Positions 31,209 through 51,725 of a stretch of 64,000 nt of DNA are shown piece by piece (positions within the stretch are counted from its first letter, which is position 1; each line of letters opens with the position of its first letter). The position numbers and the translations under genes are program-made. The DNA comes from a virus. The stretch lies in IMG/VR virus record IMGVR_UViG_3300033074_002003. The stretch is one strand, 5' to 3'. Under the pieces are notes generated by a model that did not search any database, was not told the DNA's origin, and saw only the letters and a program-made list of their open reading frames with translations.

Positions 31209-31478
31209 GCGGCGCTTGATCGTTCCTTCAATCTGACAGATTCTCATACGTGTGAGTCCATACAATTTTCCCACCTCTTCGAGGGTCTTCGCACCCTCGG
31301 ATGCAGAAATGATCGAGCAATTTTGTGCAGACGCCGCGGCAGCCAGCCAGTGTCTGCACGTGCTCTTTTTGCACGGTACGCGGTGCTTTGCGTGAGTCTC
31401 ATAACATGTGGGCATTTGTAGATCATCTCTCCGGTTACGCCTTAGAATCTCATACGTGACGCGTTGTTGTTCAAACAT
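31191..31478 (-). CDS. small Zn-finger protein whose C-terminus is a sigma-70 region 4.2-like HTH
   Basis: TLEEVGKLYGLTRMRICQIEGTIKRRL versus RpoD [28 protein letters not shown]; N-terminal C/H cluster PTCYETHAKHRVPCKKSTCRH. Confidence 0.6.
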   Translation of the reverse strand: MFEQQRVTYEILRRNRRDDLQMPTCYETHAKHRVPCKKSTCRHWLAAAASAQNCSIISASEGAKTLEEVGKLYGLTRMRICQIEGTIKRRLRVVD

Positions 31479-31493
31479 GAAAGAGTGTTCTTG

Positions 31494-32888
31494 ATGTCAA
31501 ATGCCGTGGAAAAGTGCTTTGTTCTAGACACAAATGTCCTTCTCAGCGATCCTTCGTCAATTTACTCGTTTGAAGAGCACACTGTAGTGATTCCGCTCAT
31601 TGTCCTCGAGGAACTCGATAGGCAGAAGAGCAGGCAGGACGAGGTCGGTAAGAGCGCTCGTGCGGTCGCGCGCGAGCTCGACGATCTGAGGGCGACTGGC
31701 AATTTGTTCGACGGAGTTCGCCTCGCTCACGGAACAGCGACGGGAATTCTTCAGATCAAAAGCCTCTCTAGCACGCTTTCACTCGATAAGCTACCACCTG
31801 AGCTTCGAACCGGAAGTGCTGACAATATCATCATTTCGCTTGCAAAGCTCCTTACTGACGTGCTGACGTCAAAAAAAGTCGTTCTTGTGTCGAAAGACAT
31901 CAACGTCAGGCTGAAGGCCGATTCTATCGGTGTGGTAGCAGATGACTACCTCAAGATGAGGGTGACCACAGACAAGGAACACATCTACGGCGGAGTGATG
32001 AGACTCGACGTGCCAGCCGACGTTCTTGAGAGGTTCTACACCGAAAAGAAGGTCGACGCCGTGGGCGATTTCTTTGACGTGCACGAATTTCAACCGAATC
32101 AGTTTGTCGTCATGAAGGACGTCGCCGCACCGGGAAAATCGGCCATCGGTCGGTTTGTCTTGGTGAATGGAATGCCGACGATCCAGCAGTTCAAGTTTGC
32201 TCGCGAAGCTATGGCTGTCTTCGGTGGGCTCGCTCCAAAGAACAAGGAGCAGATCTTTGCCCTTGAGTTGCTGCTCGATCCGAGCGTGAAGCTCGTGACG
32301 CTTCTCGGTGCCGCGGGAACAGGTAAGACACTCTTGTCTGTTGCTGCGGGACTGAACCAAGTAAGTGGCATCTCGGGGGTCGCAAACGCGCCGTACAGCA
32401 AGCTCATCGTGACGCGGCCGATCCAACCTCTCGGAAAGGACATCGGGTTCCTTCCCGGAACGCTCGAAGAGAAGATGGACCCGTGGATCTCACCGATCAA
32501 GGATTCACTCAACTTTCTCTTCGGGAAGCCGAAGGCAAAGCGTGAGGACGAGACGATGCTATCGATGCACCTCGAGAAAAAGAAGATCGAGATCGAAGCG
32601 CTGACATACATCCGCGGGCGCTCTATTCCAGACTCTTTCATCATCATCGACGAGGCACAGAACCTATCTGTTCACGAGCTGAAGACGATCATTACTCGCG
32701 TGAGCGAGGGAACGAAGATCGTCCTGACGGGAGACATTGAGCAGATCGACAACACGCACGTCGATGTATACTCGAACGGTCTGACACACGCCGTCGAGAA
32801 ATTCAAGTACTATCCGATTTCTGGGCACGTGACCATGCGAAAGGGCGAGCGTAGCGAGTTGGCGACGTTGGCCGCTAGTATTCTGTGA
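31494..32888 (+). CDS. phoH: PIN-domain / PhoH-like ATPase fusion (PhoH2/YlaK-like)
   Basis: N-terminal PIN FVLDTNVLLSD..IPLIVLEELD; Walker A LLGAAGTGKT; Walker B IIIDEAQN. Confidence 0.8.
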   Translation: MSNAVEKCFVLDTNVLLSDPSSIYSFEEHTVVIPLIVLEELDRQKSRQDEVGKSARAVARELDDLRATGNLFDGVRLAHGTATGILQIKSLSSTLSLDKLPPELRTGSADNIIISLAKLLTDVLTSKKVVLVSKDINVRLKADSIGVVADDYLKMRVTTDKEHIYGGVMRLDVPADVLERFYTEKKVDAVGDFFDVHEFQPNQFVVMKDVAAPGKSAIGRFVLVNGMPTIQQFKFAREAMAVFGGLAPKNKEQIFALELLLDPSVKLVTLLGAAGTGKTLLSVAAGLNQVSGISGVANAPYSKLIVTRPIQPLGKDIGFLPGTLEEKMDPWISPIKDSLNFLFGKPKAKREDETMLSMHLEKKKIEIEALTYIRGRSIPDSFIIIDEAQNLSVHELKTIITRVSEGTKIVLTGDIEQIDNTHVDVYSNGLTHAVEKFKYYPISGHVTMRKGERSELATLAASIL

Positions 32889-36243: not shown

Positions 36244-39200
36244 TGGCACTGTTTACAGCGAGCAAAATTCTCCCAGTGGCGCCCAGCATTGTGGCGTCGG
36301 TCAGTACTGTCTCAAGTGACCTCAAAACGCCGTCACCGGCAAAAGATCCACTCGTCGATAAAGTGATAGCCAGCGTTATCGATCCTCCCTCGCCCGGGAA
36401 GATTCCGATGTCTCCGCTGTCACCCCTTCACTCAACGAAGCCGGTCATTCCTGGAAAAGCTGAGTTTATCGATTTTACTCCCGAAGTTGCAATTGCGTCT
36501 GATATTGCGCTCCGGAGCGTTGACCGCGAAAAGAAGAATTTCAACCCACTCGGCGATACGTCGGGCATCACCTCACAGAGGCCTATCGTACTCGCTGTCA
36601 CACAGTTCAATCCTCTTTTCGTTCGTGACGTGTCCAAAGACAGCGTTGCGTCCGGCAGTCCTTTCACAGATATGGGAAATCACTTCCTCGATCAGTTTTT
36701 CACAAAGAAACTGATCTGGGAAAACATCGCTCGTATCGTAGATGAGCTCGGCAAAGCTCCCGACACGGCAAATAAGGTCGCTCTCTTGAATCGCGGGTTC
36801 AGGACGGGCTTCGAAAAGAGTATCGTCCCAGTTCAGTCGCTGTTTCTTGCTTTGCGCTCGCTCGAAGCTCTCAAGAAAGAGTTCGAGTTCAAGAGATACG
36901 AGGCAGTCAGCTCTACTACGATCGAATCGCTGAAACCATCAGTGCTAAAGAGCGTCGTCGGAACACACGATACGGCTGTTGCGACGTTGAGCGACGTGTT
37001 CACAGATGACCTGAAGTTCAGCGATAGCGCGTTCAGAAAGTTTTCTAACACAAAGGTGATCTATCAGCTCATCTACGAGCTTCAACACTTTGCTAGAAAT
37101 CACAGTTACGATCTTGTAAAGACAGATGTATCGGCTCACACGAGTGACGATACAGACTCTAAGATCGTCAAAAATTACGATGTGACGCCGAAGTTCTCTG
37201 TCGGATTCATGGAGAGATTCAAGCAGTTGAAGCTCACACAGTCTGATCTCGTATCGTTGTTTTCGGGTGATGACAAGGAACCCGCTTACAAACGGCTTCA
37301 GGCTGCGTTCAAATACATCTCGAGCGAACTGCCGACAAATACAGTTGAGAAAATTCAGCTCCTTGCTCTACTAGTAAGCCGCGAATTTAGGTGCAGCTCA
37401 GGATTGAGCAATGTTGATTTTCAGAACAGACTTCGCTCGGCGGGATTTGATCCCGATTCAGAAAAAAGCATTCTAGAGCAGCTTGCGGGTGATATTCCGG
37501 AGAGTGTGACTGACGTTCTCCTTGCGCAACCGAGGGGCGCGCTCTCAAACGTCGCGCAGATCAGAGCAGATGGTGCGGCTGTCCTGCCGTTTGAGACGAA
37601 ATTCATAGACTCCGAGAACGGGACGTACACACCTGGATCACTGTATATGATCGATTCGATCGTCAACGATCCCGCGTCGGCTCTCAACACTGATCGTCTG
37701 AAGTCGTACGTTTCTACATTGTCAACGTGTCTTGCGGCTCTGCAGGATACGCTAACACAGCTGAAACTCGTCAACTCATACGCGACACCCCTCCCGATGG
37801 GATTGAATCGCTCGGACGTATTTTTCTTCAGGCTGTTTTCCGAGTTGCTGCGTGCCACAATGTCAACCGGCGACCTAGGAGCTGGAATCCTTGTCGGAAC
37901 ACAAAATGAAGTGTTGGTATCGACATTCGCACAGGCAGCTGCTGATGACGTGCTCAAGAGCCAGATTTTTGCCCTTCTGTGGGATGCAGATAGTGCAGAG
38001 CTTGACACGATCATCGATGTTGATGCAGTGAACAGAATTTTCAATCGAGTGACAACTGTTCTCGGGGCGCTGAGAGCTGATACTACGAAATCTACGTCGG
38101 GTCTCAAGAAAACGCCGCTAGCGGGACCGGGTGTGAAACTCGATTTCACTGAGCTGGTGAAAGACATCGGAACAGCCACACGCAGAGATGTCAGCGAGGA
38201 AGAGTTCAGAGCTGCTTTCAGTAGCGCTGAATTCAAAAATGTCAAGGCACTGTTCAAATCGATCGCGTCGACATTCGAAATAAAGAAGAGCTACACAGAC
38301 GCTGGTACGACAAGACTCAGCAAAGTCAACTCGATCGCGGTTCAGATGCTGCTCGTAGACGAATTTGTCTCTATCGCGAGCAGGTTCATGTTTTCCAAAT
38401 TTAAGCTCGGGTCAGACAGCAGATTGCAGGTAGAGAGCTCGGGATCGAAGATTTTCGGCGTGCGTACCGTGCTAGACAAGCTGGCGGTTGCGCCCGACCT
38501 GCAACAGGCAATTCAAGTCAACAACGCAGACGAGCTGGATGCCGTAGATCCGCAGCTACGACAGATTGCCTTCAAGCTCAATGATGAGGAGATGGCACTC
38601 AAGAAAATCTACATCTCTCTCGTAAATCTGCTCTCAGGTGTTATCAGGTCAGCTGAGACAACTCTCGCGCAGTTCGCGCCGGGAACGGGCGTTCACGCCA
38701 AGCTGTTTGATGACCTGTCTGACATCATAGACAAGAGGCTGGTGAATTTGCTTGACGCAGCTCAGATACGCCTCGCGTCGTTCAAAACGCTCGACACCAC
38801 GTCACGCGTCGTTGCGGGTCTCGCTAAGGGTGAGAGAGTTACGATGCTTGACGATACAGTGATGCAGTTGCCGACGCTGCTCGCATTGGGTTCAGCTCTG
38901 TCGGAGAAGAGGTTTCAACAGCTCGCTGCGCAGAATCTGCGAATCATCAGCGTTGGACTCCCGGCGGGATTTTCAAAGCAACTTCAAGAGCGCGTCGACG
39001 TGCGCTTGACCAAAGGGACGACGAAACTTCAGCGCAAAGAGCAGGACGTCGTTACGATCAACGTGTACAAGCGTGACGCCGGGTATCCCGAAATCGTGTT
39101 CAAACCGCAGAAGTTCGTGTTTGAGCTCTCTAGATTCGTGTTTGTTGACTCGGCGTTTGCCCTCGCTGCCTCAAAAGAGCCGAGTTTCATGTCTTTTTCG

Positions 39201-39929
39201 AAGTTGATGGAGATCGCTAGGACGGTCGATCTGGGTGATACGATCGTATCACCAGACGTCCTGACGTCTTCAGACAAAGACCTTCGCGACAGTTCGGAGT
39301 ACGATTTCTTGAGTCCTGACGAAAAAGAGGCGCTAAGAGCAAATCACGTGATGAGTGCTCTTCTGACACAGTACATCAAGATGATTTCGGGAGTCTCTCT
39401 TGACGAGAGCGCATTTCCGATCAGTTTCGGTGACATCACTGTCCCAGTGGCAGTGACAGATCCGGCGCTTCTGAAAGAGCTTATCGAAGCGCGTGTGAAG
39501 ACAGTCGCAAACATTCCAGCATTTGACGCCGCCACAGACAGTGTCTCGAGCCTCGACATCTCTGCGGAGAAAAAGAACAAGATTGCGTGTGATGTCAAAC
39601 ACCTCGCGGCGCTCGCTTTTTCAAGAACAACACTGGGAGATCCCACAGCAGAAACAAAGGCCGCGCTGACACCAAAGCTCTTCGAGAGAATCTTCAATGT
39701 CCCAGTCGATCCAGACGACTTCCTTGTTGATGTCGAACTAACTCGCAAGAGCACATCGGGTGCTGCTGCTCTGGATGCTTACGTCGCCTCGGGCGAATTT
39801 CAACACATCGACGATCGCGATGGCACGGTGACATCTTACGCTCTTGCTGACAAAAATAGGCAGCGTACAGACACTGTTCTGGAGCAGTACTTTGTCACCA
39901 TATCTACAACCCTCGGGACAAGTACATGA
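36243..39929 (+). CDS. very large putative virion structural protein (1228 aa)
   Basis: Long uninterrupted ORF, ATGA coupled to both neighbours. Confidence 0.35.
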   Translation: MALFTASKILPVAPSIVASVSTVSSDLKTPSPAKDPLVDKVIASVIDPPSPGKIPMSPLSPLHSTKPVIPGKAEFIDFTPEVAIASDIALRSVDREKKNFNPLGDTSGITSQRPIVLAVTQFNPLFVRDVSKDSVASGSPFTDMGNHFLDQFFTKKLIWENIARIVDELGKAPDTANKVALLNRGFRTGFEKSIVPVQSLFLALRSLEALKKEFEFKRYEAVSSTTIESLKPSVLKSVVGTHDTAVATLSDVFTDDLKFSDSAFRKFSNTKVIYQLIYELQHFARNHSYDLVKTDVSAHTSDDTDSKIVKNYDVTPKFSVGFMERFKQLKLTQSDLVSLFSGDDKEPAYKRLQAAFKYISSELPTNTVEKIQLLALLVSREFRCSSGLSNVDFQNRLRSAGFDPDSEKSILEQLAGDIPESVTDVLLAQPRGALSNVAQIRADGAAVLPFETKFIDSENGTYTPGSLYMIDSIVNDPASALNTDRLKSYVSTLSTCLAALQDTLTQLKLVNSYATPLPMGLNRSDVFFFRLFSELLRATMSTGDLGAGILVGTQNEVLVSTFAQAAADDVLKSQIFALLWDADSAELDTIIDVDAVNRIFNRVTTVLGALRADTTKSTSGLKKTPLAGPGVKLDFTELVKDIGTATRRDVSEEEFRAAFSSAEFKNVKALFKSIASTFEIKKSYTDAGTTRLSKVNSIAVQMLLVDEFVSIASRFMFSKFKLGSDSRLQVESSGSKIFGVRTVLDKLAVAPDLQQAIQVNNADELDAVDPQLRQIAFKLNDEEMALKKIYISLVNLLSGVIRSAETTLAQFAPGTGVHAKLFDDLSDIIDKRLVNLLDAAQIRLASFKTLDTTSRVVAGLAKGERVTMLDDTVMQLPTLLALGSALSEKRFQQLAAQNLRIISVGLPAGFSKQLQERVDVRLTKGTTKLQRKEQDVVTINVYKRDAGYPEIVFKPQKFVFELSRFVFVDSAFALAASKEPSFMSFSKLMEIARTVDLGDTIVSPDVLTSSDKDLRDSSEYDFLSPDEKEALRANHVMSALLTQYIKMISGVSLDESAFPISFGDITVPVAVTDPALLKELIEARVKTVANIPAFDAATDSVSSLDISAEKKNKIACDVKHLAALAFSRTTLGDPTAETKAALTPKLFERIFNVPVDPDDFLVDVELTRKSTSGAAALDAYVASGEFQHIDDRDGTVTSYALADKNRQRTDTVLEQYFVTISTTLGTST

Positions 39930-41779
39930 GCACGTCATTTCCCAGCACACCCATCACAATTGCGGACGTGCCCGAAGTTTCGAAATTTCCACAACCACAG
40001 TTCGTCTACAACTACTACGTTGAGAATGAGACTGTTGATGAGACGGGTGAGCCACCCGCTGGGACCCTGCGTCGAAGCACGAGCTACATGAATGACGGCT
40101 CAAACTTGGTGCAGTACGCTCGCAGGATGCCGCGTCACGTAAAAATCGCGTTCTCGCCGGTTGTGATTTCGTCTGTGTCGACGGAGAAGAGAAAAAACGC
40201 CTCTTACATCCGTAGCAACGAATCAAAAATTGTCCACGAGGAGCACTTCAGCAACAACAAATACACCGGTGTGAACTTTGAACCAGTTGATGCTGAGGCA
40301 AAGTTGTTCGCACTAGTCTCTGGATCAGCGGCGTCTGTCGGCTCTTCTAGTCCGACGCTCGAAAAGACGGTTAGCGCAAAATCGTCGCTAGCCGAAAGGG
40401 TCGGCGGTGCTACGAGCGAAGAGATCCCACCCGGATTTCTCAGCAAAGTAATGGCTTCGCGTGTCGTTCAAGATCACGCAATTCGCGCGCACGATCCAAT
40501 TCCACCCGATCTATCACTCCGTGTGCAGTTTGACAATAGATTCGTGAAATCAGCCGTTCAGACGTCTATGTTTGATCCCTTTTCGATCTACAACGAAGAC
40601 ATCAGATCACTGTGGACGTCCCTACAAGAAGTGCAGCGTAAGGCGATTTCGTCCGCGAAGAGTACGACCATTCATAGCAAAGAGTTTGATCCTGAGGTGC
40701 AGTGGATCTCCGTCGAAAAACAGACCGACACCACAACACCAGGTCCGCTGCAGACGAAAATCGTGGGATATATCGTCGACAAGTGGGAAATTTCAAGCGA
40801 TGGCACGTTCAAGAGTGTCAAGCCGTCGATAATTCTCGAAAATCCGCTCGCGTGTGAGTACCTGGATTTTTCGGTAAAGTACGGCTGTGAATACTGCTAC
40901 GCTGTGCGAACCATAGCTGAGATTCGCGTGTCAATGCTCGTTGAGAGTGCTGACGGTAGTGTCGTCCCGTCGATCGTGACGCTGCTGGTCTCTTCGCGGC
41001 CGACGCCAAAGCAGTATGTCCAGACGATCGAAAAAGTTGCACCTCCGCCCCCGACAGACGTGGATTTCGTGTGGAACTTTCAGGACAAGCTCCTGAGCGT
41101 TGTCTGGTCATTTCCCGTCAACACGCAGCGCGACATCAAGAAGTTTCAGGTGTTTCGGAGGAGAGACATCTCTTCTCCGTTTGAGCTGTTGCAGCTGATA
41201 GACTTTTCGGACGCCCGCGCGGCAAAATTTCCCGATCCGGAGAGCGATGCGCTGCCGAGCTCTGTCGTGAGGCGCGTCACATCGCCGGTTACCATGTTTG
41301 TCGACGAAGAGTTCACACGTGACTCGGAGTTCATCTATGCTGTTGCGGCGATAGATGCACATGGCCTCGCTTCTGCTTATTCGCAGCAGTTCAAGGTTTC
41401 GTTCGATAAGTTCCGCAACAAACTCATTAGAGAGCAGATTTCTCCATCGGGCGCTCCGAAGCCCTACCCAAACTATCACCTTCTCGTCGACACATTTGCC
41501 GATGTTGTACACAGTACAAAGAAACAAACGGTGTCTGTGTATTTTACTCCTGACGCTGTTTCGATCATAGATCGTTCAAATGCGAAGAAGCAGATGCTCG
41601 AGACGGATGCTACGGGTGGGAAGTACTACTTGCAGGTGACGAACACAGATCTGCAGAAGCAGAGGATCTGTGAAATCTCTGTCGTGGATCTGAGAACGAC
41701 TGTCGGTTCTCCGAGCGCTGTTGGAAAGTTCCTCGGCGACATCAGTACAATATCTGCAGCACGCCCGAGATTCGGTTGA
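39926..41779 (+). CDS. putative virion structural protein with FN3-like segments
   Basis: CEYCYAVRTIAE and SEFIYAVAAIDAHG strands. Confidence 0.35.
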   Translation: MSTSFPSTPITIADVPEVSKFPQPQFVYNYYVENETVDETGEPPAGTLRRSTSYMNDGSNLVQYARRMPRHVKIAFSPVVISSVSTEKRKNASYIRSNESKIVHEEHFSNNKYTGVNFEPVDAEAKLFALVSGSAASVGSSSPTLEKTVSAKSSLAERVGGATSEEIPPGFLSKVMASRVVQDHAIRAHDPIPPDLSLRVQFDNRFVKSAVQTSMFDPFSIYNEDIRSLWTSLQEVQRKAISSAKSTTIHSKEFDPEVQWISVEKQTDTTTPGPLQTKIVGYIVDKWEISSDGTFKSVKPSIILENPLACEYLDFSVKYGCEYCYAVRTIAEIRVSMLVESADGSVVPSIVTLLVSSRPTPKQYVQTIEKVAPPPPTDVDFVWNFQDKLLSVVWSFPVNTQRDIKKFQVFRRRDISSPFELLQLIDFSDARAAKFPDPESDALPSSVVRRVTSPVTMFVDEEFTRDSEFIYAVAAIDAHGLASAYSQQFKVSFDKFRNKLIREQISPSGAPKPYPNYHLLVDTFADVVHSTKKQTVSVYFTPDAVSIIDRSNAKKQMLETDATGGKYYLQVTNTDLQKQRICEISVVDLRTTVGSPSAVGKFLGDISTISAARPRFG

Positions 41780-41880
41780 GGGCTTTACGATCTCACACTG
41801 TGGTATACACTACAAATACTCACGAGTGTCATACGAAGCTAATACGTAGCTGTTGTTCGCGCCTCGCGCACGGAGTGTAA

Positions 41881-42594
41881 ATGGGATTTCTAGATCAGTC
41901 TACAAATAGCATCTTGCTCGATTCTGTCTTGACTGATTACGGTCGACAGGCTCTGTCAAGGAACGACGGGTCTTTTTCCGTCGTGAAGTTCGCGGTGAGT
42001 GACGAAGAGGTAGACTACTCGATCATCACAAAGTACGGCCGAACAGTCGGCAAAGAGAAGATCGAGAAAAATACGCCCGTGTTTGAGGCAATCACCAACC
42101 AGAATTACGCTCAGAAATATCGTCTGGTGTCTCTGTCAAATCCATACCTCATTCGCCTCCCTAACTTTACGCTAGAGGGTGCCGGTGTCGATTCTAGCTC
42201 GGACACCGTGTCTATGGGTCGCCTCTACACCAAGTCGGCAACGCTGACGGTGACGCAGACAATCACAAACGAGTCTTCGATCGACAACGAGCTGCGCGAT
42301 CAGTCTTTCATCGTTGAGGTGAACAACTCGTTCCTGCAGATCGCAAAGTCACGTCCGAACAACATCGACGGACAGCAGCGTGCGAGGTACATTCTTACGC
42401 GAGCGCCCGTTGAGACGTCGCTCGGCGGGTCAACCGTGACGTTCACGCTGCAGGTGAAGTCGCTGACCGAAGCACAGTTTCAGGTGTTCGGAAGCACAAG
42501 CAACAAGAATCGAATCACGACATACGTTCGTGTCACTGGCGTGCAGAGCGGGGCCGTGAAAGAGTTTCGCGTAAACATCGACAAGACTGCGTGA
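41881..42594 (+). CDS. putative structural protein (N-terminal paralogue of 32926..33843)
   Basis: MGFLDQSTNSILLDSVLTDYGRQALS. Confidence 0.35.
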   Translation: MGFLDQSTNSILLDSVLTDYGRQALSRNDGSFSVVKFAVSDEEVDYSIITKYGRTVGKEKIEKNTPVFEAITNQNYAQKYRLVSLSNPYLIRLPNFTLEGAGVDSSSDTVSMGRLYTKSATLTVTQTITNESSIDNELRDQSFIVEVNNSFLQIAKSRPNNIDGQQRARYILTRAPVETSLGGSTVTFTLQVKSLTEAQFQVFGSTSNKNRITTYVRVTGVQSGAVKEFRVNIDKTA

Positions 42595-42604
42595 TCGGGG
42601 AGAA

Positions 42605-43867
42605 ATGGCAACATTCAAAGAAATTAGCTCAGAAGACGTCAAGACGCAGCGGTCGTTTCTCGAACAGATTGTTGACGTTCTCCAACAGAGCATCAGCGGT
42701 TCGTCTACACGCCGGAAATATCAGGTCTTCGTCACGGGTGGCCTGGGACCAGGCGTAACGTCGTCTCTCTTTCAAACTGTCTACGATCAGGATTTCACGC
42801 TGCAGACGGCAAACCCAGTCTTTGACATGTCTGTCGGCCTGTACTACAGCGGCTCTACTGCACTCGGCGCGCAGGTTGGCACAGACACGTCAGGGAAACC
42901 GCTCTTCCCCAGCAATACCCTCATGATGAGGGAGAAGATTGACGTCTACAAGCAGTTTGCCCAGGCACTTCTCGGTGAATCGACGGCACAGTTCGTTGCA
43001 CCTTTCGACTCTACAACGGACGCGGACAAATTTGATTCCGCTCTCTTCCTCTCGTTCAAGCGACTCTTTGCTCGCGACAAGATGAAGCGCGAGACGTTCT
43101 CGATGGTCTTCTACAAGGGTGCCGCACACACTGAGATGGGTGGGTTCGCGGCGGGTTCGTCTCTTCCCAACCTCGCACAGACGTCTATCATCAGCGCTTC
43201 GATCCTCACTGACTTCGGAGCGTCCGGTGATAGGGTGGTGACGCCGGGCGGAGAGGTCGGAAATCTCTACAACGCTACAGACACAACTACGACAGTCGGT
43301 CAGATCTTCTACGACAGGGGCGTTGTTGTCCTCAATCTCGCTCGTGTCATCTCCGGAAGCCAACACGTCTCAGGCGTCATCAGCTACGTTTCTGGCGGTT
43401 CTGCGACGGGATACTCGATTGGCCAAACGATCATCGGAGCACACTCTGGTGGTGGCGCGGATCCAAACTTCCCGCTCGCAAATCCGAACGCGAAGTTCAT
43501 TCCCGATCTCATGGTATCGGGCTCCATCGATAACATCATCGATCACTTCGCGACAGCGAGGTTCCAGTCGGGCTCCCTTTCGGCGATGACGTTCCAGAAC
43601 CTCACGACGATCAACTCGTCGCTGTACTTTGCACGCCTCACAGCAGATGAGTTCAACTACAGCACCAACCCAACATTCACAGATTCTGAGAACAGGATTG
43701 TTGTGATCGACGAGGGTCAGGAAGACACGCAGCAGTCGTTCACATTCGTGACCACGATCGGCCTCTACGATGCGAACGATAACCTTCTGGCTGTCGGAAA
43801 GCTCTCGCGCCCTGTTGAGAAAAACTCTGAGAAGGACCTCACGTTCAGGATCAGATTGGATTTTTGA
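42605..43867 (+). CDS. putative tail/structural protein (C-terminal domain paralogous to 43935..46280)
   Basis: Shared C-terminal motifs GQIFYDRGVVVLNLARV and FVTTIGLYDANDNLLAVGKLSRPVEK. Confidence 0.35.
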   Translation: MATFKEISSEDVKTQRSFLEQIVDVLQQSISGSSTRRKYQVFVTGGLGPGVTSSLFQTVYDQDFTLQTANPVFDMSVGLYYSGSTALGAQVGTDTSGKPLFPSNTLMMREKIDVYKQFAQALLGESTAQFVAPFDSTTDADKFDSALFLSFKRLFARDKMKRETFSMVFYKGAAHTEMGGFAAGSSLPNLAQTSIISASILTDFGASGDRVVTPGGEVGNLYNATDTTTTVGQIFYDRGVVVLNLARVISGSQHVSGVISYVSGGSATGYSIGQTIIGAHSGGGADPNFPLANPNAKFIPDLMVSGSIDNIIDHFATARFQSGSLSAMTFQNLTTINSSLYFARLTADEFNYSTNPTFTDSENRIVVIDEGQEDTQQSFTFVTTIGLYDANDNLLAVGKLSRPVEKNSEKDLTFRIRLDF

Positions 43868-43934
43868 AAGTTTTACGAATTCTGCTCAACGAGCAAAGGA
43901 TTGGCGTCGCGTTAGAGCGAGTACTTAAGTTGCG

Positions 43935-46280
43935 ATGTCATTTTTCAAAATCTCCCCCGATCAGATTGAGACATTCACGATTGTTACAAATCCGTATCGA
44001 TCGTATGCCACATCGTCAGCGGGTGCTTTTGGTTCGATCTATGTGTTCCCACGTCGCTCTCCATTTGAGCGTGACGTAGTAGAGACGGGGACAGAAGCGA
44101 CGCGCTTCTCTGACGGTACGATCGATCAGCTCATTCAGGATATCAAGTCTTCTCTAACTTCGTCTACTGACATAAGTTCGGCTGTCAGTTCGTACATGGC
44201 AGCCGTTCACTCTAGACCGCAGTCGAAGAGAAATACGGCTACACTACCGATAGTGAGGTATGTACCAGGCAACATCTTCTCCGAGAGTACGCTGCGCAAA
44301 AATACCGTCAGGAAGCTTCTCTGTCCCTACTATCGCACAGAGATGCCGACGGCACACTGGGCGTATACAAACTACCACTCGATCAACTTTGCTCGTTCGG
44401 CGAACCTTTCGACGGGGTCTGCGCTGTTGTTTCCAAATGCTCCGATTTCGAACAGCACATTTGCGTCGGGCACGTATGTCGTAACGGGTGGGTTCACCTT
44501 TGAGTTCTCTGTCAACCCGCGGTTCGTAGCCAATTCTCCCACGACTGAATTCAGGGCGTCAACGCTGATGCACCTATCATCGTGCTTTGCTGTATCGATC
44601 GTGTCCGGCTCGGAGCGCGATCACAACAACAACACGCGTGGTTTCAGGGTGCTGCTTCAGTTGAGCCACAGCGCCGATATTTCTCCGTCTGTTGCTGCTG
44701 CGGGTACGTACCCACGTAACTTGGTCTTTTTGTCGGATGACAACTCGCTGAAGGCAAATACGTGGAGCAGGGTCGTGATCCGTTGGGGCACCAATTCTGT
44801 GAACCACGGAACTGGAACCATCCTCATTGACGGCGTGACACGCGGCACGTTCGTTGTGCCGTCATCGTCGATTGCCCCACGCTCGATGGCAGCGTTCGGA
44901 AACCCAGACGTGCTCTGCGTCGGAAATTTCTACGAAGGAACCAACGCCGGAACGTCACAGCTCGCGTACTTCTTTGCTGCTAACACCGCTGCAAGAGAGG
45001 GCCTCGTTCCGCTGACGAGCGATACGTCACGGGACGAGCCGGCGACCTACAGCTTCTCTCACCCTTTCAACGCCGAATTCCACGACCTCATCATACGTGA
45101 TGGGTACGCACCAGATGACCTCGTATTCAGCGGTTCGGGCGTCGGACCGGAAAATCTAGACGGTGTGAAGTTCTTCCTCCCGCCGTTCTTTACGAGCGAG
45201 TCTCCGTTCAGGAGGCAGGTGGGAACGAAGGGTGGTGTCCTTCAGACACCGTTCTTCTCGGTCGACGGCACGACAGACGATCCGTTCAACGCTGCGCTTG
45301 CGTTCGGTGTCGGCGGTCACTATATCAACGCAGAGAACTTCGTCCGCGATTTTGCTACGGGCCGGTACCCACTTCTTCACCAGCTGTCCGCGTCAGAGAT
45401 TACGACAACGACTGATGCCCTGTCGACTAACGAGACGTTCTACAGGGATCCCAACGTGAGGCGAAGGAACACTTTCATCCTCCCGTGCGATGATGGCAGC
45501 TACGTTCCGAATTTCGGATTGCTTCTCACGAGCTCCGCGACGTCATCGTTCTACGACGATCTGGGGGCTGACGATCCAAGCTTCATCTCGCTGAATGACA
45601 TGATTCCGAGCGGCAACTTTCTCGGATTCCTGCAACACGATTCCGGTTCATATTTTCAGCAGCTCGCGGGAGCGTCCCCGGAGTCTCCTGGCGTTGACCC
45701 GGGCTCTGTCCTCACAATCTTCCAGAGGACTCGCGATAACTCATCGAACCAAGTGACGCTGTTCAACATCAGCAACCTGTACTACGGCAACAGGATCAAA
45801 CCCGGGACGTTCTCTGTCAGTGACTCATCACTTTCCGGAACGGCGGGGGCTATTGGGATCACGCTGCGCGATGACGGTTACGGAAACCTCTATCGAGCAG
45901 ATTGTAGCGGATCGCACGCTAAGTGGAACTCAGTGGGCAACATCTTCTACAATGAGGGTGTCGTCGTCGTGAAGTCACCTCACCTTAACTTTTTTGGTGC
46001 AGACGCGTTCTCAATGACATTTCAGGGTGAACAGACGATTCACACCACGAAGATCAACGTCATCATCGGTAGCAATACACTAAACTCTTCTTCAAACACG
46101 TCATTTTCGCCGATTTCGGCCTCCTTTGCGGCGAACGAGACTGACGGACGGTTCGTGTACGTGACAGATGTCTACCTGATGGACGAGAACATGAACGTTG
46201 TCATGAAGACAGCTCTCGCACAGCCGATCTTGAAGCGGTACGGCGAAAAATACCTCGTGAGAGTCCAGCATGACTATTAA
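43935..46280 (+). CDS. putative tail/baseplate or fibre structural protein
   Basis: 781-aa ORF; C-terminal GNIFYNEGVVVVKSPHL and YVTDVYLMDENMNVVMKTALAQPILK paralogous to the previous gene. Confidence 0.35.
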   Translation: MSFFKISPDQIETFTIVTNPYRSYATSSAGAFGSIYVFPRRSPFERDVVETGTEATRFSDGTIDQLIQDIKSSLTSSTDISSAVSSYMAAVHSRPQSKRNTATLPIVRYVPGNIFSESTLRKNTVRKLLCPYYRTEMPTAHWAYTNYHSINFARSANLSTGSALLFPNAPISNSTFASGTYVVTGGFTFEFSVNPRFVANSPTTEFRASTLMHLSSCFAVSIVSGSERDHNNNTRGFRVLLQLSHSADISPSVAAAGTYPRNLVFLSDDNSLKANTWSRVVIRWGTNSVNHGTGTILIDGVTRGTFVVPSSSIAPRSMAAFGNPDVLCVGNFYEGTNAGTSQLAYFFAANTAAREGLVPLTSDTSRDEPATYSFSHPFNAEFHDLIIRDGYAPDDLVFSGSGVGPENLDGVKFFLPPFFTSESPFRRQVGTKGGVLQTPFFSVDGTTDDPFNAALAFGVGGHYINAENFVRDFATGRYPLLHQLSASEITTTTDALSTNETFYRDPNVRRRNTFILPCDDGSYVPNFGLLLTSSATSSFYDDLGADDPSFISLNDMIPSGNFLGFLQHDSGSYFQQLAGASPESPGVDPGSVLTIFQRTRDNSSNQVTLFNISNLYYGNRIKPGTFSVSDSSLSGTAGAIGITLRDDGYGNLYRADCSGSHAKWNSVGNIFYNEGVVVVKSPHLNFFGADAFSMTFQGEQTIHTTKINVIIGSNTLNSSSNTSFSPISASFAANETDGRFVYVTDVYLMDENMNVVMKTALAQPILKRYGEKYLVRVQHDY

Positions 46281-46701
46281 GCGCCCGCGCCGAGCGAAGA
46301 AAAAGAGATTTCACACAGGCACTTACGTGTCTACGAAAACCGGGAAATCGATGGTCTACAGGAGTTCGTGGGAGCTCGAATTCATGGAGTACCTCGATGC
46401 TGACGATACAGTGACATCGTACTCTTACGAGTCGGTCATCGTCCCGTATCGACGGTCGTTGAGATCGATTCGCATCAGCAAGTACATCGTCGATTTTAGG
46501 GTCGAGTACAGTTCTGGTGTCACTACGCTGTATGAAATCAAATCGTCGTCATTTGTGAACAGGCGTGTCAACCTCGCCAAGTTCAGCGCGTGTAGGACGT
46601 ACTGCACACAACACGGTTGGCAATTTTCTGTGCTGACAGAGGTAGAGCTTCGCGCGATGGGCCTGCTGAAACGAAAGGCTCCGGGTACGTTACAATCATA
46701 G
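46270..46701 (+). CDS. PD-(D/E)XK family endonuclease (TnsA-N / Hjc-like)
   Basis: Motifs YIVDFRVEY and LYEIKSS (D...E.K). Confidence 0.4.
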   Translation: MTIKRPRRAKKKRFHTGTYVSTKTGKSMVYRSSWELEFMEYLDADDTVTSYSYESVIVPYRRSLRSIRISKYIVDFRVEYSSGVTTLYEIKSSSFVNRRVNLAKFSACRTYCTQHGWQFSVLTEVELRAMGLLKRKAPGTLQS

Positions 46702-47457
46702 TTGATGAAGAAGCGATTTCTTGGGCTTGATATCAGCACATCGTGCACGGGTTGGACAGTGTTGGGTGAGGAGGGCGAGCTCATCAAGATGGGACACATC
46801 CTCTTCAAGGGCTGCGCGACACTCTGGGACAAAGTAGATCTCGCAAGGGAAGCACTAGCGGAAGTGCAGACAGAATTTGCGCCCGCGCAGGTTTTCATCG
46901 AAGAATCTCTCCAGGGATTCAGACCTGGGATGTCTTCTGCAAATACGCTCTTGATGCTCGCAAAGTTCAATGGCATCATCAGCTATGATATGCGCCACCT
47001 CACCGGTGTAGATCCGGTGTATATTTCTTCGGGCGAGGCGCGCAAGAGATGCGGAGTGAAGCTGATCCGTGAGAAGAAAAAACATCCCCGTCAGCTAGGA
47101 TACAAGCACCAGACCTTCAACGTAATTTCTAGCGGCCTTCTGGACGGTTACAGCTGGCCAGAGAAGAAGGGGAAAGATGACCCAGCTGCCACTCTGGCCG
47201 AACGTGTTGTCGATTGGGCACTAGATGAGGTCGATTCTTACGTCATCGCGCGGGCGGGCTGGCTTTCAACGCTGAACAAAACAGTACGTGCGGAGAAAAA
47301 TAAGGAGGATGTTCGCCCTCTCAGACAAAGTAAAGTTCATCGAAAGGGTGTTCGGAAAGGGGGACGTGACTCGCAACCTGACGAACATTCAGGTGACGTG
47401 CCCAATTTGTCTTCAGCAGAGTCAGAAGTGGTCGCAGAAGAGAAAGCTGGCGGTTAG
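46702..47457 (+). CDS. RuvC-fold Holliday-junction resolvase-like protein; the 3' ~150 nt overlap the primase gene
   Basis: LGLDISTSCTGWTVL ~ RuvC ILGIDPG..TG first-strand Asp motif; FIEESL second acidic site. Confidence 0.5.
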   Translation: MMKKRFLGLDISTSCTGWTVLGEEGELIKMGHILFKGCATLWDKVDLAREALAEVQTEFAPAQVFIEESLQGFRPGMSSANTLLMLAKFNGIISYDMRHLTGVDPVYISSGEARKRCGVKLIREKKKHPRQLGYKHQTFNVISSGLLDGYSWPEKKGKDDPAATLAERVVDWALDEVDSYVIARAGWLSTLNKTVRAEKNKEDVRPLRQSKVHRKGVRKGGRDSQPDEHSGDVPNLSSAESEVVAEEKAGG

Positions 47458-48286
47458 GCTCTCAGACGATCTTGTGCACTGTTGGGTCTGTGGCTATAGT
47501 TCGAGGAACCTTGTCCCGCTTCTCAGGAAGTTTGGAAGCCACGATGACCTGAGTTTCTACATCGAGAAGTCTGGGTCATCTCTCACATTTCAGAAGCCCG
47601 CCGAAGACGAAAGCGTTCCACTGAAGTTGCCCGAGGGGTTCAGGTTGATCGCCCCACTCATCGGCCGCGGCGATCGAGACGTTGTTCGTGCGATGCGATA
47701 CCTCAAGGAGCGCGGGCTCACAGCGTCAGACGCGTGGTACTACAAGTTTGGTGTCGCTCCGACGCTCCCAGATCGCGTCATCATGCCCTCATTCGATCAA
47801 GTGGGTGGGCTAAATTTCTGGACGGCCCGTTCGATCGTTGACGCTCGTCCGAAGTACATCGATCCCCCGAAGGAGTGTGTGAGGAAGAATGAGATCATCT
47901 TCAATGAGATCAACATTGACTGGAAGAAGGAGCTTGTCATCGTCGAGGGCCCATTTGACCTGACGAAGTGTCCCACCAATACGACAGCCCTTCGAGGCAA
48001 CCAACTCTCTGAAGAGTCTCGGCTACTTATACAGATCGTGATCCACGAGACTCCTTGTGTCGTGATGCTTGACGACGATGCAACTGATCGCGCCGGGAAA
48101 ATCGTGAGGACATTGGCGTCGTACGGCGTCACTGCAAAGCGCGCTAACCTCGGCGAATTTCACGATCCGGGCGAGATGACGAAGAAACAGGTTGCCGACT
48201 GCGTAAAAGCCGCACGTGAGCTACAATGGGAAGATCACCTCTCCGACAAGCTTTCTAAATTGGATCGCCTTCACCTCTCGTTTTGA
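47309..48286 (+). CDS. DnaG-type DNA primase (Zn ribbon plus TOPRIM), T4 gp61-like
   Basis: CPICLQQ..HCWVCGY zinc ribbon; TOPRIM ELVIVEGPFD and VVMLDDDATDRAG. Confidence 0.7.
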   Translation: MFALSDKVKFIERVFGKGDVTRNLTNIQVTCPICLQQSQKWSQKRKLAVRLSDDLVHCWVCGYSSRNLVPLLRKFGSHDDLSFYIEKSGSSLTFQKPAEDESVPLKLPEGFRLIAPLIGRGDRDVVRAMRYLKERGLTASDAWYYKFGVAPTLPDRVIMPSFDQVGGLNFWTARSIVDARPKYIDPPKECVRKNEIIFNEINIDWKKELVIVEGPFDLTKCPTNTTALRGNQLSEESRLLIQIVIHETPCVVMLDDDATDRAGKIVRTLASYGVTAKRANLGEFHDPGEMTKKQVADCVKAARELQWEDHLSDKLSKLDRLHLSF

Positions 48287-51200
48287 GGCACATGAAAATC
48301 TGTCACATCGCAGACATCCACATCCGTTCGATCAGCAGGCACGATGAGTACCGAACTGTGTTTCAGAGTCTCATCGACGACCTGAAAAAAGATCCCGTTG
48401 ACGTTATCTTTGTCGGGGGCGATGTCTGGCACACGAAAACAGCTGGGCTCACACCTGAGTACATCGACTTCATGCGGTGGTGGCTGACAGAGCTCGCGAA
48501 TTGTGCCGAGCTGTTTGTTACTCTTGGAAATCACGACGGAAATCTCGTCAACACTGACAGGCAGGATGCAGTGTCGCCGATCGTCGCCGCCCTCGCAAAC
48601 CCGCGCGTGAAGCTGTACAAGAAGAGCGGTGTATATGAGTTCAAGAAGGGCTGGAACTTCTGCGTCTACTCGCTATTCGATCGCGAGGGGTGGAAGAATG
48701 TATCACCCGAGAAGGGGAAGATCAACATCGCGTGCTATCACGGCGGTGTCAGGTCTTCTCTGACCGAGACGGGTTGGCCAATCGAAGAGGGCCCGTCTGT
48801 CGACTTCTTCGACGGGTATGACCTTGTCCTCCTCGGTGACATCCATCGCCAGCAGTTTCTCGGCAGCCCGAAGAACGGACAGCCGTGGATCGCGTACCCC
48901 GGAACGCCAGTCTGTCAGAACTACGCAGAGGGCTACCAGAAGCACGGGTACCTAAAATGGGTGCTGAATGATGACGGTGTCGTAAGCTCTGTTGATTTCG
49001 TCGAGCTGAAGCAACCGAACCCGTTCGTGACAGTCGACTGGGAGGGCGATCGAGAGAAGTTCGTCAAAGATATCGAGGAGCTTCCGGAGGCAGCGAGGTT
49101 CCGTGTCAAGAGCTCTGTGTTCGTATCACAGGATGACATGGGTGTCATCTCTGCGACACTGAAGAAGAAGAAATCGGCGATCGAAGTCGTCTTGAAGTCT
49201 GAGGTGACACACAAGAAGGACGTGTTCTCGGCGGGCGGCCTTGAGATGATGCGCGATGACTTGCGCAATGTCGAGGTCCTGACACTTCTCTTGAAGGATT
49301 TCTATCGCGGTATCTCTATCAGCAATTCTGAGTGGGATGACGTCACGAAACTCGTTGAGAAGTACTTGCGATCGGCTTCGAGTGACGACGAGTCACCGCG
49401 ACACGTCAAGTGGAGAATCGGCGAATTCTCGTTCGAGAACCTGTACTCTTACGGGCTCGGCAACAAGATCAACTTTGAGAAGCTGTCTGGTATCGTCGGA
49501 ATTTTCGGACCTAACAGGTCTGGGAAGTCATCGATCGTCGGGACGATGATGTATGGTCTCTTCAACACGACAGATCGCGGGGCGGTCAAAAACCTTCAGA
49601 TCGTAAATGACAGGAAGTCCTCCGGCGAGGCGAAGATCGCACTTCAGGTGGGTGAAGCGAAGTACGTGCTGACGCGTGAGACAAACAAAACAGACACGAA
49701 GAAGGGCATCACAGTCGCGGCCACTTCACTCGATCTGAGGCGTATCGCCGCTGACGGCTCTCTTGTGAACATGAACGGTGAGCAGAGAAATGACACCGAG
49801 AAGACGATCAGGAAGTTGATCGGTACACAGGACGATTTCCTGCTCACGTCAATGTCAACACAGGGTGATCTGAACAAGTTCATCAACGAGGGCTCTGCCT
49901 TCAGGAAACTGATTCTCACGAAGTTCCTCGACCTCGACATCTTTGAGAAGATGCACGAAGCAGCCAAAGCAGAGCTCAAAGCGGCGACAGCGATATCAAA
50001 GACGATCCCAAAGCGTGATTGGCCAGCAGAGCTAAAGAAGATCGACACAAAGCTGTCTAATTTTGATGACTTCGCAGAGAAGATCGAGACAAAGCTGTCT
50101 GAGCTTCGGGCATCGCTGCATACCGCACAGGTGAAGCTCGCGCTGTATAAAAACACCTCAACTGTGTCAGAGGACGAAATTTCTGCCGCAGTAGCTCTTC
50201 TAGAGTCGTACGTTGCTTCTTCTGAAGCGCTCGAAGTGCAGCTCAAGAAGCTTCGCCTCTCGCTGGAAAATGGTCACGATGCCCACGCTCGCGTCCTATC
50301 CCTTCTCGAGAACTACGACGCAGAACAGCTACGAATTGAGCGTGATAACGGCGTAGCACTAAAATCTGCGGCAAAGACGCTTGAGGCACAGCTCACTCGC
50401 GCGAAAGAGGATGTCGAGAGGTTGAAGAGGTCCGCAAAGAAGCTAAGTGTCGTCCCATGCGAAGACAAGTTTCCCACGTGCATGTTCATCAAAGACTCTC
50501 ACGTCGATAGGGGAGAACTACCCGCCGCAGAACAGAATGTCGCCGAACTAGAAAAATCTCTCGAGAGCACAAATTCGGCATTTTCTGACTGGCAGAAGCT
50601 CGATACGGAGAAGAAGTTCGCAGAGCACGCTCGCCTCCTGACAGAAGAGAGGTCACTCGCAAACGCTATCTCGGCGTCAGAGGTGTCGGTCACAAAGACA
50701 GAGAGCCAACTTAGTATTGCGAACGCGAAGCGCGGAGCACAGAAGATCAAGGTCGATGAGCTCGTCGAGGCTGCGGCTCGTGCGGAGAGTGTCGAGGCAC
50801 TTACTCTCCAGAGAGAGTGCGACTCGATCAACGAAGACATCAAGCGTTACGACAAAATGAAAGTCGATGCCGCCACCAGTCGCGGCAAATTTGAGACTGA
50901 GGCGAAGCAGCTGAAGTCACAGCAGTCACAGTACGAAAAAGTTCAGCATGACATTCACGTGACGGAGCTGATCTCAGAGGCTTTCTCGAAGCGCGGAATT
51001 CCCACGAAAATCATCAATTCGCAGCTGCCGGCGATAAACGCTACTGTCGCTGAAATTCTCCATGGCGTTGTGGATTACACGATTGAGTTCGTTGCGGACG
51101 AGGACTCGAACGCCCTTGACGTGATCTTGAACTACGGCGATTCAAAGAGGGTTATCGAGCTCGGATCTGGCATGGAGAAACTATTTGCGTCACTTGCAAT

Positions 51201-51438
51201 CAGGGTGGCACTTCACACGATCACCTCGCTCCCAAAGACCGACATGTTTGTCATTGACGAAGGATTTGGCTCTCTGGACGACCTCAATGTGGAGCCCTGT
51301 AATCGCCTCTTGAGATCGCTGAAGAGGTACTTCGGAACGGTGATTGTCATCACACACGTGGGTGGTATCAAGGATTCTGCCGACACGATCATTGAGATCG
51401 CTCGAGACGGAAAAGACTCGAAGGTGGTCGCAGAATGA
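48283..51438 (+). CDS. single-polypeptide fusion of Mre11/SbcD-like nuclease (T4 gp47-like) and Rad50/SbcC-like ABC ATPase (T4 gp46-like)
   Basis: N-terminal phosphoesterase motifs ICHIADIHI, FVGGDVWH, TLGNHD; Walker A FGPNRSGKSS at ~aa 410; long coiled coil with CEDKFPTC hook-like motif; signature GSGMEK; Walker B MFVIDEGFGSLD; H-loop IVITHV. Confidence 0.75.
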   Translation: MRHMKICHIADIHIRSISRHDEYRTVFQSLIDDLKKDPVDVIFVGGDVWHTKTAGLTPEYIDFMRWWLTELANCAELFVTLGNHDGNLVNTDRQDAVSPIVAALANPRVKLYKKSGVYEFKKGWNFCVYSLFDREGWKNVSPEKGKINIACYHGGVRSSLTETGWPIEEGPSVDFFDGYDLVLLGDIHRQQFLGSPKNGQPWIAYPGTPVCQNYAEGYQKHGYLKWVLNDDGVVSSVDFVELKQPNPFVTVDWEGDREKFVKDIEELPEAARFRVKSSVFVSQDDMGVISATLKKKKSAIEVVLKSEVTHKKDVFSAGGLEMMRDDLRNVEVLTLLLKDFYRGISISNSEWDDVTKLVEKYLRSASSDDESPRHVKWRIGEFSFENLYSYGLGNKINFEKLSGIVGIFGPNRSGKSSIVGTMMYGLFNTTDRGAVKNLQIVNDRKSSGEAKIALQVGEAKYVLTRETNKTDTKKGITVAATSLDLRRIAADGSLVNMNGEQRNDTEKTIRKLIGTQDDFLLTSMSTQGDLNKFINEGSAFRKLILTKFLDLDIFEKMHEAAKAELKAATAISKTIPKRDWPAELKKIDTKLSNFDDFAEKIETKLSELRASLHTAQVKLALYKNTSTVSEDEISAAVALLESYVASSEALEVQLKKLRLSLENGHDAHARVLSLLENYDAEQLRIERDNGVALKSAAKTLEAQLTRAKEDVERLKRSAKKLSVVPCEDKFPTCMFIKDSHVDRGELPAAEQNVAELEKSLESTNSAFSDWQKLDTEKKFAEHARLLTEERSLANAISASEVSVTKTESQLSIANAKRGAQKIKVDELVEAAARAESVEALTLQRECDSINEDIKRYDKMKVDAATSRGKFETEAKQLKSQQSQYEKVQHDIHVTELISEAFSKRGIPTKIINSQLPAINATVAEILHGVVDYTIEFVADEDSNALDVILNYGDSKRVIELGSGMEKLFASLAIRVALHTITSLPKTDMFVIDEGFGSLDDLNVEPCNRLLRSLKRYFGTVIVITHVGGIKDSADTIIEIARDGKDSKVVAE

Positions 51439-51725
51439 GCGGTCTAAAGGTGACAAGGGGTGAATCGTCGATTCTGCTTGTCAGAGAGGGAGCTACGTCA
51501 CCCATACCGTTGTTTTGTCCCGTCTGTGATCTCATGATGAGAACAGCCGAAGACGCCGCAGCGCATCGCGAGTCTACGTGTTGTGCTGCGTGCGCGAGGA
51601 AGTGGCGAGATTCAAATCGATCTCGATGGGCATCTGGTTGGAGACCTACCACAAAAGAAGTCAGTGAAGAGGTCTCTACAAGGAGAATTGTACCCATCTC
51701 GCTAAAGCTTGAGGAAGACGCATAG
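51435..51725 (+). CDS. small Zn-finger protein
   Basis: CPVC..HRESTCCAAC. Confidence 0.35.
   Translation: MSGLKVTRGESSILLVREGATSPIPLFCPVCDLMMRTAEDAAAHRESTCCAACARKWRDSNRSRWASGWRPTTKEVSEEVSTRRIVPISLKLEEDA

Follow-up and report, generated by a model that had tools for sequence, protein, structure and literature searches.

Mre11 and Rad50 in one reading frame: a conserved nuclease-ATPase fusion on a viral genome fragment

Could the nuclease and the ATPase of an Mre11-Rad50 (SbcD-SbcC) enzyme be encoded by a phage as one polypeptide, or does such a frame hide the boundary between two genes? This question is raised by the IMG/VR virus record IMGVR_UViG_3300033074_002003, a stretch of 64,000 nucleotides (nt) that was analysed as a whole (the window), in which an original prediction placed equivalents of T4 gp47 and gp46 in a single open reading frame (ORF) at 48283-51438. 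Here, we computed the continuity of the ORF, the state of its motifs, its conservation and selection, its predicted architecture and its gene context, and found both domain sets in one frame, as had been claimed. The fusion is no sequencing artefact: it is genuine, it has been conserved, and purifying selection acts on it. The further claim that such fusions are rarely reported could not be sustained. The class was described in 2011, when Yoshida, Claverie and Ogata (Virol J 8:427, PMC3175470) recognised the Mimivirus protein R555 as a fusion of an N-terminal Mre11 and a C-terminal Rad50; JGI names several relatives of the window protein “SbcCD ATPase subunit/SbcCD nuclease subunit”, and aquatic viral metagenomes contain a very large number of family members. 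The fusion itself is therefore not new and is very common in aquatic viruses. It is very probable that the gene encodes a natural single-chain Mre11-Rad50 of the R555-like family in a large aquatic phage with T4-type head genes, and that the protein would act as a homodimer trimming DNA ends for recombination-dependent replication.

One uninterrupted and conserved reading frame

In the ORF listing, 48283..51438 (+ strand, as are all coordinates below unless stated otherwise) is one uninterrupted ORF of 1051 amino acids (aa), whose TTG start at 48283 overlaps the stop codon of the upstream primase gene. Translation probably begins at the ATG at 48292, three codons 3' of the TTG, which gives the Mre11-Rad50 fusion protein a coding sequence (CDS) of 48292-51438 and a length of 1048 aa. 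This start is favoured because GAGG is found 3 nt upstream, because homologues begin at the equivalent Met, and because P0001, a relative 97% identical to the window protein, is also 1048 aa long. Consequently, the originally given 1051 aa is the length of the listed ORF, while the protein is probably three residues shorter. Note that residue numbers hereafter refer to the 1048-aa protein unless the 1051-aa ORF is named.

Then, is this single frame genuine? The alternative is that mre11-like and rad50-like genes are in fact separate, and that the stop and restart, or the frameshift, between them has been masked by an error in sequencing or assembly. Some relatives do show breaks, since one distant relative (L090) consists of a 339-aa and a 706-aa ORF with a 1-nt frame change, and 22 of the 150 best representatives of the family begin after nuclease motif V. 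However, the ORF in the window is continuous, and the fusion is judged not to be an artefact because relatives have unbroken frames, because the codons of a close orthologue differ in a way expected of one protein, and because orthologues come from other samples as well.

As for the relatives, the protein search returned at least 1324 clusters at 90% identity with E<=1e-5, and the best 120 of these at least 1324 clusters are 1038-1059 aa long, with 99-100% coverage and 41-97% identity. In an exhaustive search of the 50%-identity representatives, 9452 matches were obtained at E<=1e-3 and 1972 at E<=1e-30; among the 150 best representatives, the nuclease and both ATPase lobes lie on a single polypeptide in 119, as judged by alignment coverage. 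Relatives were found on at least 591 IMG/VR viral contigs, and a frame of at least 1000 codons with both motif sets is present in 76 of the 80 IMG/VR loci retrieved, while contig ends cut three of the other four. An intact 1048-aa orthologue is also present on contigs from three other samples. In addition, the isolated phage Mel-JY01, a Microcystis phage, has one annotated CDS for its homologue.

The comparison between the window gene and its 97%-identical orthologue is especially informative about the frame. Over 3144 nt there are no indels, and 271 synonymous codon differences stand against 29 non-synonymous ones. Just upstream of the junction, at aa 241-372, the differences are 28 synonymous versus 2 non-synonymous, that is, 13:1 in the cap region and 15:1 in the helix-loop-helix (HLH) and linker (aa 321-372). 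Purifying selection in one frame thus runs straight through the nuclease/ATPase junction.

Two places in which the fusion might have failed had been pointed out, namely a masked stop or frameshift at nt ~49350-49500 and homologues made of two genes broken at the junction. For the first, a break was looked for and none was found; this region (aa ~353-403) is in frame and holds the invariant residues W374, N383, G388, N391, F395, G400 and G403. For the second, the two-ORF relatives are rare, and their breaks interrupt domains, either in the HLH loop or in the loop at aa ~191-199, and none of these breaks coincides with the boundary between nuclease and ATPase. This evidence effectively refutes the explanation by sequencing or assembly error, to which we assign a negligible probability.

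Architecture from the nuclease to the ATPase

Could both halves still be complete enzymes? Both sets of motifs proposed originally, the nuclease motifs at the N-terminus followed by Walker A, a coiled coil, the signature motif, Walker B and the H-loop, are present and conserved, and their key residues are invariant or nearly so in a family alignment of 63 sequences. The NCBIfam models for sbcC, sbcD, Rad50 and Mre11 all match the fusion ORF, and Rad50, SbcC, SbcD and Mre11 were all matched when the fusion was searched against the sequences of the PDB. The AlphaFold2 (AF2) model, built from the family alignment, shows the order nuclease (aa 1 to ~240), cap-like domain (245-320), HLH, linker (364-372), ATPase N-lobe, coil, apex, coil and C-lobe. 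Its mean predicted local distance difference test (pLDDT) is 84.6, and its predicted template modelling score (pTM) of 0.49 is as expected for a long flexible coiled coil.

The Mre11/SbcD calcineurin-like nuclease core occupies aa 1-240 (48292..49011). It matches Pfam Metallophos over aa 4-189 of the 1051-aa ORF (E 2.6e-11, 44.8 bits against a cutoff of 21.5) and the SbcD-like family of PHROG (6e-23), and the family profile matches SbcD/Mre11 in the PDB at 4e-9. In Foldseek searches, E. coli SbcD (4lty/7yzo) was aligned over 355-419 columns with a TM-target of 0.58-0.66. The motifs are D8-x-H10, G43-D44-x-x-H47, G79-N80-H81-D82, H150 and G182-D183-I-H185. Compared with the Mre11/SbcD phosphoesterase motifs I-V (DxH, GDxxD, GNH[DE], H and GHxH), all five are present and two positions are substituted, with Asp replaced by His in motif II (GDxxH for GDxxD) and the first His of the GHxH consensus replaced by Asp in motif V. 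GDxxH is found in 229 of 234 family members and GD[IVL]H in 226 of 234.

The nuclease core is followed by a small alpha/beta domain at aa 245-320 (49024..49251), which is defined by the secondary structure of the AF2 model with pLDDT mostly 80-89 and takes the position of the Mre11 capping domain; sequence similarity to SbcD is weak and reaches about aa 261 in the 1051-aa numbering. Next comes the HLH at aa 321-363 (49252..49380), with AF2 helices at 321-337 and 345-363 and the conserved residues D323, L324, R325 and L333, in the position of the Rad50-binding domain of Mre11. By analogy with the T. maritima complex as discussed in PMC3175470, it may serve as the Rad50-binding element. Between the Mre11 part and the first beta-strand of Rad50 there is a linker of only nine residues, aa 364-372 (49381..49407), which has no regular structure according to DSSP on the AF2 model.

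The N-lobe of the Rad50/SbcC ATPase, aa 373-548 (49408..49935), holds the Walker A lysine K412 and the Q-loop residue Q524; it is matched by Pfam AAA_23 (6e-10, above the cutoff) and SMC_N, and by Rad50 in the PDB (3qf7, 8e-13). The C-lobe, aa 898-1048 (50983..51435), is matched by Pfam SbcC_Walker_B and by Rad50 3aux (5e-10). The matches to SMC_N (384-1041) and SbcC_Walker_B are both sub-threshold. The SbcC-like family of PHROG matches at 3e-50, and with the family profile SbcC and Rad50 in the PDB are matched at 2.9e-16 and 5e-16, respectively. Across the two lobes the motifs are Walker A GPNRSGKSS, the Q-loop, the signature S959-G-M-E-K963, which is not of the canonical SGGE type, Walker B D989-E990, the D-loop D996 and the H-loop H1022; K412, Q524, SGMEK 959-963, D989-E990, D996 and H1022 are invariant in the alignment. 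Foldseek aligned C. thermophilum Rad50 (7zr1) over about 800 columns and also returned human, M. jannaschii and T. maritima Rad50 and E. coli SbcC from the PDB.

Between the lobes, the AF2 model contains an antiparallel coiled coil (49936..50982), ascending at aa 549-720 and descending at aa 734-897, whose arms of ~170 residues correspond to a coiled coil of about 25 nm. At its apex is a loop of 13 residues, aa 721-733 (50452-50490), in which both conserved Cys residues sit, C723 (50458-50460) and C730 (50479-50481). The zinc hook of cellular Rad50 is CxxC. In the window family, the apex reads PC-x6-C, often followed by x6-H: Cx6C is found in 225 of 234 full-length members and Cx6Cx6H (with H737) in 179 of 234. 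Therefore, of the Cys hook-like motif originally proposed, the conserved Cys pair at the apex stands, while its spacing is Cx6C (C723, C730) and not that of the canonical hook.

Some relatives deviate from the single chain in ways that deserve description in their own right. The position most often broken is a surface loop that follows directly on motif V of the nuclease (aa ~191-199); the 22 representatives mentioned above, which include P0179, P0185 and P0188, begin at about aa 195. At L007:2363-6583, an ORF of 215 aa (aa 1-190) and one of 860 aa (aa 194-1048) are separated by a gene of 315 aa, which combines a Ros/MucR-like zinc finger with a C-terminal half homologous to the gp4/TnsA-type nuclease encoded at 46270-46701 of the window (33% identity, E 2e-13); this gene looks like a free-standing homing endonuclease. 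At L020:255-3533, the two halves are adjacent and in the same frame without an insert. Four other relatives of 1400-1779 aa (P0207, P0235, P0236 and P0239) contain insertions of several hundred residues with Pfam intein-splicing and/or LAGLIDADG/Hom_end homing-endonuclease matches, located after GNHD (aa ~86) in P0235 and at the Walker A lysine (aa ~415) in P0207, P0236 and P0239. The portal genes of L002 and L007 also bear inteins. Finally, in L090:785-3921 (JGI 3300002231 contig, 4.9 kb), which is 37-43% identical, the nuclease ORF of 339 aa overlaps the ATPase ORF of 706 aa at CCTTGA within the HLH loop; this is explained either by a 1-nt error in the assembly or by a variant in which two genes are coupled through TTGA.

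Gene neighbourhood and proposed role

What could a single-chain enzyme do in this phage? The fusion gene lies in a tight block on the + strand, which comprises a gp4-type nuclease, a RuvC-like resolvase, a primase, the fusion, a 96-aa ORF, TerL, a T4-type portal protein and a gp23-type major capsid protein, so that it is placed among the primase and the resolvase and just upstream of the packaging genes. The first gene of the block (46270..46701) encodes a T4 gp4-type head completion nuclease with a TnsA-like fold (phrog_218, and Pfam Tn7_TnsA-like_N on its orthologues), for which tblastn matches gp4 of T4-like phages and a faint Phage_endo_I match were also obtained. The RuvC-like Holliday junction resolvase (46702..47457; phrog_159 and phrog_827) follows, and the DNA primase (47288..48286; PHROG_47, 8e-34) is directly upstream of the fusion, with tblastn matches to Twort-like primases including ORF026 of phage G1. 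The gene order is kept on a 298-kb freshwater contig and on further contigs, and the fusion relatives come from aquatic/freshwater metagenomes and IMG/VR. A scan of 46-54 kb for promoters and terminators gave nothing above the shuffled expectation, and megablast of the window at 40-60 kb against phage records gave no match. A search of the bacterial and archaeal genomes of GTDB with the two most conserved peptide patterns brought up no relatives, and hence no lead to a host or prophage.

For such a protein, we infer dimerisation, zinc binding, enzymatic activities and a role in replication as follows. Two copies would most likely form a homodimer equivalent to M2R2, in which the N-terminal nuclease domains would dimerise and each HLH would dock at the base of a Rad50 coiled coil, where the nine-residue linker would allow docking on the own chain. 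ATP would draw the two Rad50 heads together around DNA, while the conserved Cys pair might join the tips of the coiled coils. DNA ends could then be trimmed or nicked by 3'-5' exonuclease and endonuclease activities under the regulation of ATP, and the resulting recombinogenic ends could feed recombination-dependent replication and the repair of the phage genome, in analogy to gp46/gp47 of T4.

The same nuclease-ATPase might instead have as its main job the SbcCD-like cleavage of hairpins or blocked ends for genome-end maturation, or the degradation of host DNA, or counter-defence. The hairpin-bound and endonuclease-state structures of E. coli SbcCD are among the Foldseek matches, the PHROG families are named as subunits of a “palindrome specific endonuclease”, the gene is located directly between the replication genes and the packaging and head genes, and the scanned part of the window shows no recombinase. 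However, such activities are compatible with end resection, and in T4, gp46/47 takes part in recombination as well as in the breakdown of host DNA; the RuvC-like resolvase and the primase next to the fusion are consistent with a recombination/replication module, and the sequence contains nothing that would distinguish substrate preference. We consider any of these other main jobs unlikely, and end trimming for recombination-dependent replication is preferred.

Could the protein, on the other hand, belong to a conflict system, as an ABC-ATPase with a nuclease effector comparable to Lamassu, Wadjet or OLD-type systems, and not be a core replication enzyme? Chains of Lamassu LmuACB and of JetABC do occur lower in the Foldseek list, at ranks 21-46, as would be expected for any SMC-like ATPase. 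However, Rad50 and SbcC rank first among the matches, the nuclease belongs specifically to the Mre11/SbcD type, with a cap-like domain and HLH, and the gene is universally syntenic in the replication/packaging core of its lineage. Inteins, whose typical sites are conserved genes that are essential, also target it, and the GTDB search for bacterial or archaeal relatives with the two peptide patterns was negative. A conflict-system function is thus very improbable.

Several points weigh against the single-chain replication enzyme that we favour. No UvsX/RecA-like recombinase was identified among the scanned ORFs of the window, with many ORFs lying outside the scan. The pTM of the AF2 model is low, and the contact of the HLH with the coiled coil, be it in cis or in trans, is a prediction. 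With Cx6C at the apex in place of CxxC, dimerisation through a zinc hook is putative. Membership of the R555 clade is supported indirectly, by shared substitutions, gene neighbours and the ranking in structure searches, and no biochemical study of R555 or of any natural fusion was found in the literature searched. Finally, a second copy of Mre11 or Rad50 was not seen within the window, and Mel-JY01 has a single place matching the fusion, but the window is part of a genome only and a further unfused copy may lie elsewhere.

The ATG of the next gene (51435..51725) overlaps the TGA stop of the fusion as ATGA. It encodes a conserved Cys-rich protein of 96 aa with the motifs PLxCPxC...CCxxCAxxW...GWRP, is found in the same position in L002, L004 and L007, and has no PHROG match; one may speculate that its product is an accessory factor that binds zinc. 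Even a distinct variant of the enzyme could be imagined, namely a single chain with a Cx6C(x6H) metal site replacing the CxxC hook, the 51435-51725 product as a third, previously unrecognised subunit, and the post-motif-V split as a sign that the Mre11 domain assembles from two polypeptides, although taken as a whole this is improbable.

Other parts of the window are also of interest. At ~1240-23800 on the - strand there are ~20 kb or more of nucleotide-sugar and glycan biosynthesis genes, among them UDP-glucose dehydrogenase, UDP-galactopyranose mutase, a DegT-type aminotransferase, a polysaccharide-biosynthesis epimerase/dehydratase and at least three group-1 glycosyltransferases; a cytidylyltransferase-like/NUDIX protein and an N6/N4 DNA methyltransferase are in the same block, which is a large metabolic island for a phage. 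On the + strand, a chaperonin GroEL-like ORF (26630-27883) has a partial PHROG match (1e-12), and a long PhoH-like protein of 474 aa is encoded at 31464-32888 (5.5e-108). Upstream of the gp4-type nuclease, at 33859-46280 (+), large ORFs of 794, 1228, 617, 420 and 781 aa without PHROG matches presumably encode the structural proteins (tail or fibre) of a lineage that is as yet uncharacterised.

What, then, remains new, if the class has been described before? The answer is confined to three features of this lineage: the apex with its non-canonical motif, the Cys-rich ORF conserved downstream of the fusion, and the places where relatives are naturally split. The family also provides a compact, conserved and natural single-chain Mre11-Rad50, whose fixed 1:1 stoichiometry could ease expression, structural work and engineering, and its alignment constitutes a set of natural experiments on hook chemistry (Cx6C vs. 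CxxC), linker length and tolerated split or intein sites. In addition, most relatives are unnamed or called AAA/ATPase proteins, as in Mel-JY01, and could be renamed with confidence.

Comparison with known systems

Besides R555, twelve further fusions from eukaryotes, bacteria, plasmids and the Bacillus phage 0305phi8-36 were listed in PMC3175470, in which R555 homologues were reported to rank first in abundance among the Mimivirus-like genes of the GOS and BIOME aquatic metagenomes. They were enriched in viral fractions and located on scaffolds with phage primases and endonucleases, where the neighbouring primases resembled those of Staphylococcus phage G1 (ORF26), Twort, SPO1, A511, LP65 and S-PM2, and the authors concluded that phages are the source of many R555 homologues (PMC3175470). 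They also noted that R555 has His for the third Asp of GDxxD and Asp for His206 of P. furiosus Mre11, and estimated that a linker of 9-12 residues would bridge the C-terminus of Mre11 and the N-terminus of Rad50 (PMC3175470). The window protein shares with this type the order of Mre11 and Rad50 in one ORF, the GDxxH motif, the Asp in place of P. furiosus His206, a region of cap/HLH length and a linker of 9 residues against the 9-12 predicted, and its family shares the abundance in aquatic viral fractions and the Twort/G1/SPO1-type primase neighbours. It differs in its length (1048 aa vs. 1351 aa for R555) and in its carrier, since the window belongs to a tailed phage with T4-type head genes and not to a giant eukaryotic virus; the Cx6C apex is not discussed in PMC3175470. 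In BFVD, the best full-length matches are mimivirid fusions, with E from 4e-55 (Harvfovirus) to 1e-45, at ~18-21% identity in the Foldseek alignments and in a ranking that favours longer fused targets. They come from Harvfovirus, Tupanvirus, Yasminevirus, Terrestrivirus, Catovirus, Tetraselmis virus 1 (TetV-1), Klosneuvirus and Megavirus, and fused proteins of Tenacibaculum phages rank after them.

With T4 gp47/gp46, the window protein has in common the enzyme families and the presumed role in processing DNA ends for recombination-dependent replication, and the phages have in common morphogenesis genes of the gp4, gp20, gp21 and gp23 types. However, T4 and the Twort- and SPO1-like phages have two separate genes, whereas in the window nuclease and ATPase are covalently joined in this order; in T4, gene 46 (the ATPase) precedes gene 47 (the nuclease). 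The detectable unfused phage homologues in BLAST are the exonuclease subunits of Twort-like and SPO1-like phages, and no T4-like record is among the organism names of the BLAST matches listed at E<=1e-5. Therefore, the designation as gp47/gp46 equivalents is right at the level of families only, and among unfused phage homologues those of the Twort/SPO1 type are nearest. One candidate for a split fusion, in Flavobacterium phage immuto (primase, “exonuclease”, a hypothetical protein and a 907-aa “NadR”), was rejected, as BLASTP revealed no relationship.

Bacterial SbcCD and archaeal/eukaryotic Mre11-Rad50 share the fold and all the catalytic motifs with the window protein, but they are assembled from separate subunits, and their CxxC zinc hook contrasts with the Cx6C of the window family, whose coiled coil has ~170 residues per arm. 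The bacterial order of sbcD followed by sbcC is colinear with the fusion. For example, the ORFs of Vibrio sbcD and sbcC align with it in order across the intergenic stop; these Vibrio “plasmid” matches over aa 1-551 were rejected as cellular fusions, since they are adjacent in-frame genes for sbcD (386 aa) and sbcC (1013 aa) that tblastn read through the stop.

Among the closest known homologues are those of Mel-JY01, the isolated phage whose capsid is closest to that of the window, and, grouped with it, those of the huge phage LR756508. The Mel-JY01 protein (WWT39521; L001, PP395634.1, 183173-186373) is annotated as “AAA domain containing protein”, a label that omits its N-terminal Mre11/SbcD nuclease. 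It is only 26% identical to the window protein, and its apex, CKHCC, looks like a canonical CxxC. Nevertheless, it has a single full-length CDS (1066 aa), the same GDxxH, GNHD, GDIH and SGMEK motifs, and a primase upstream.

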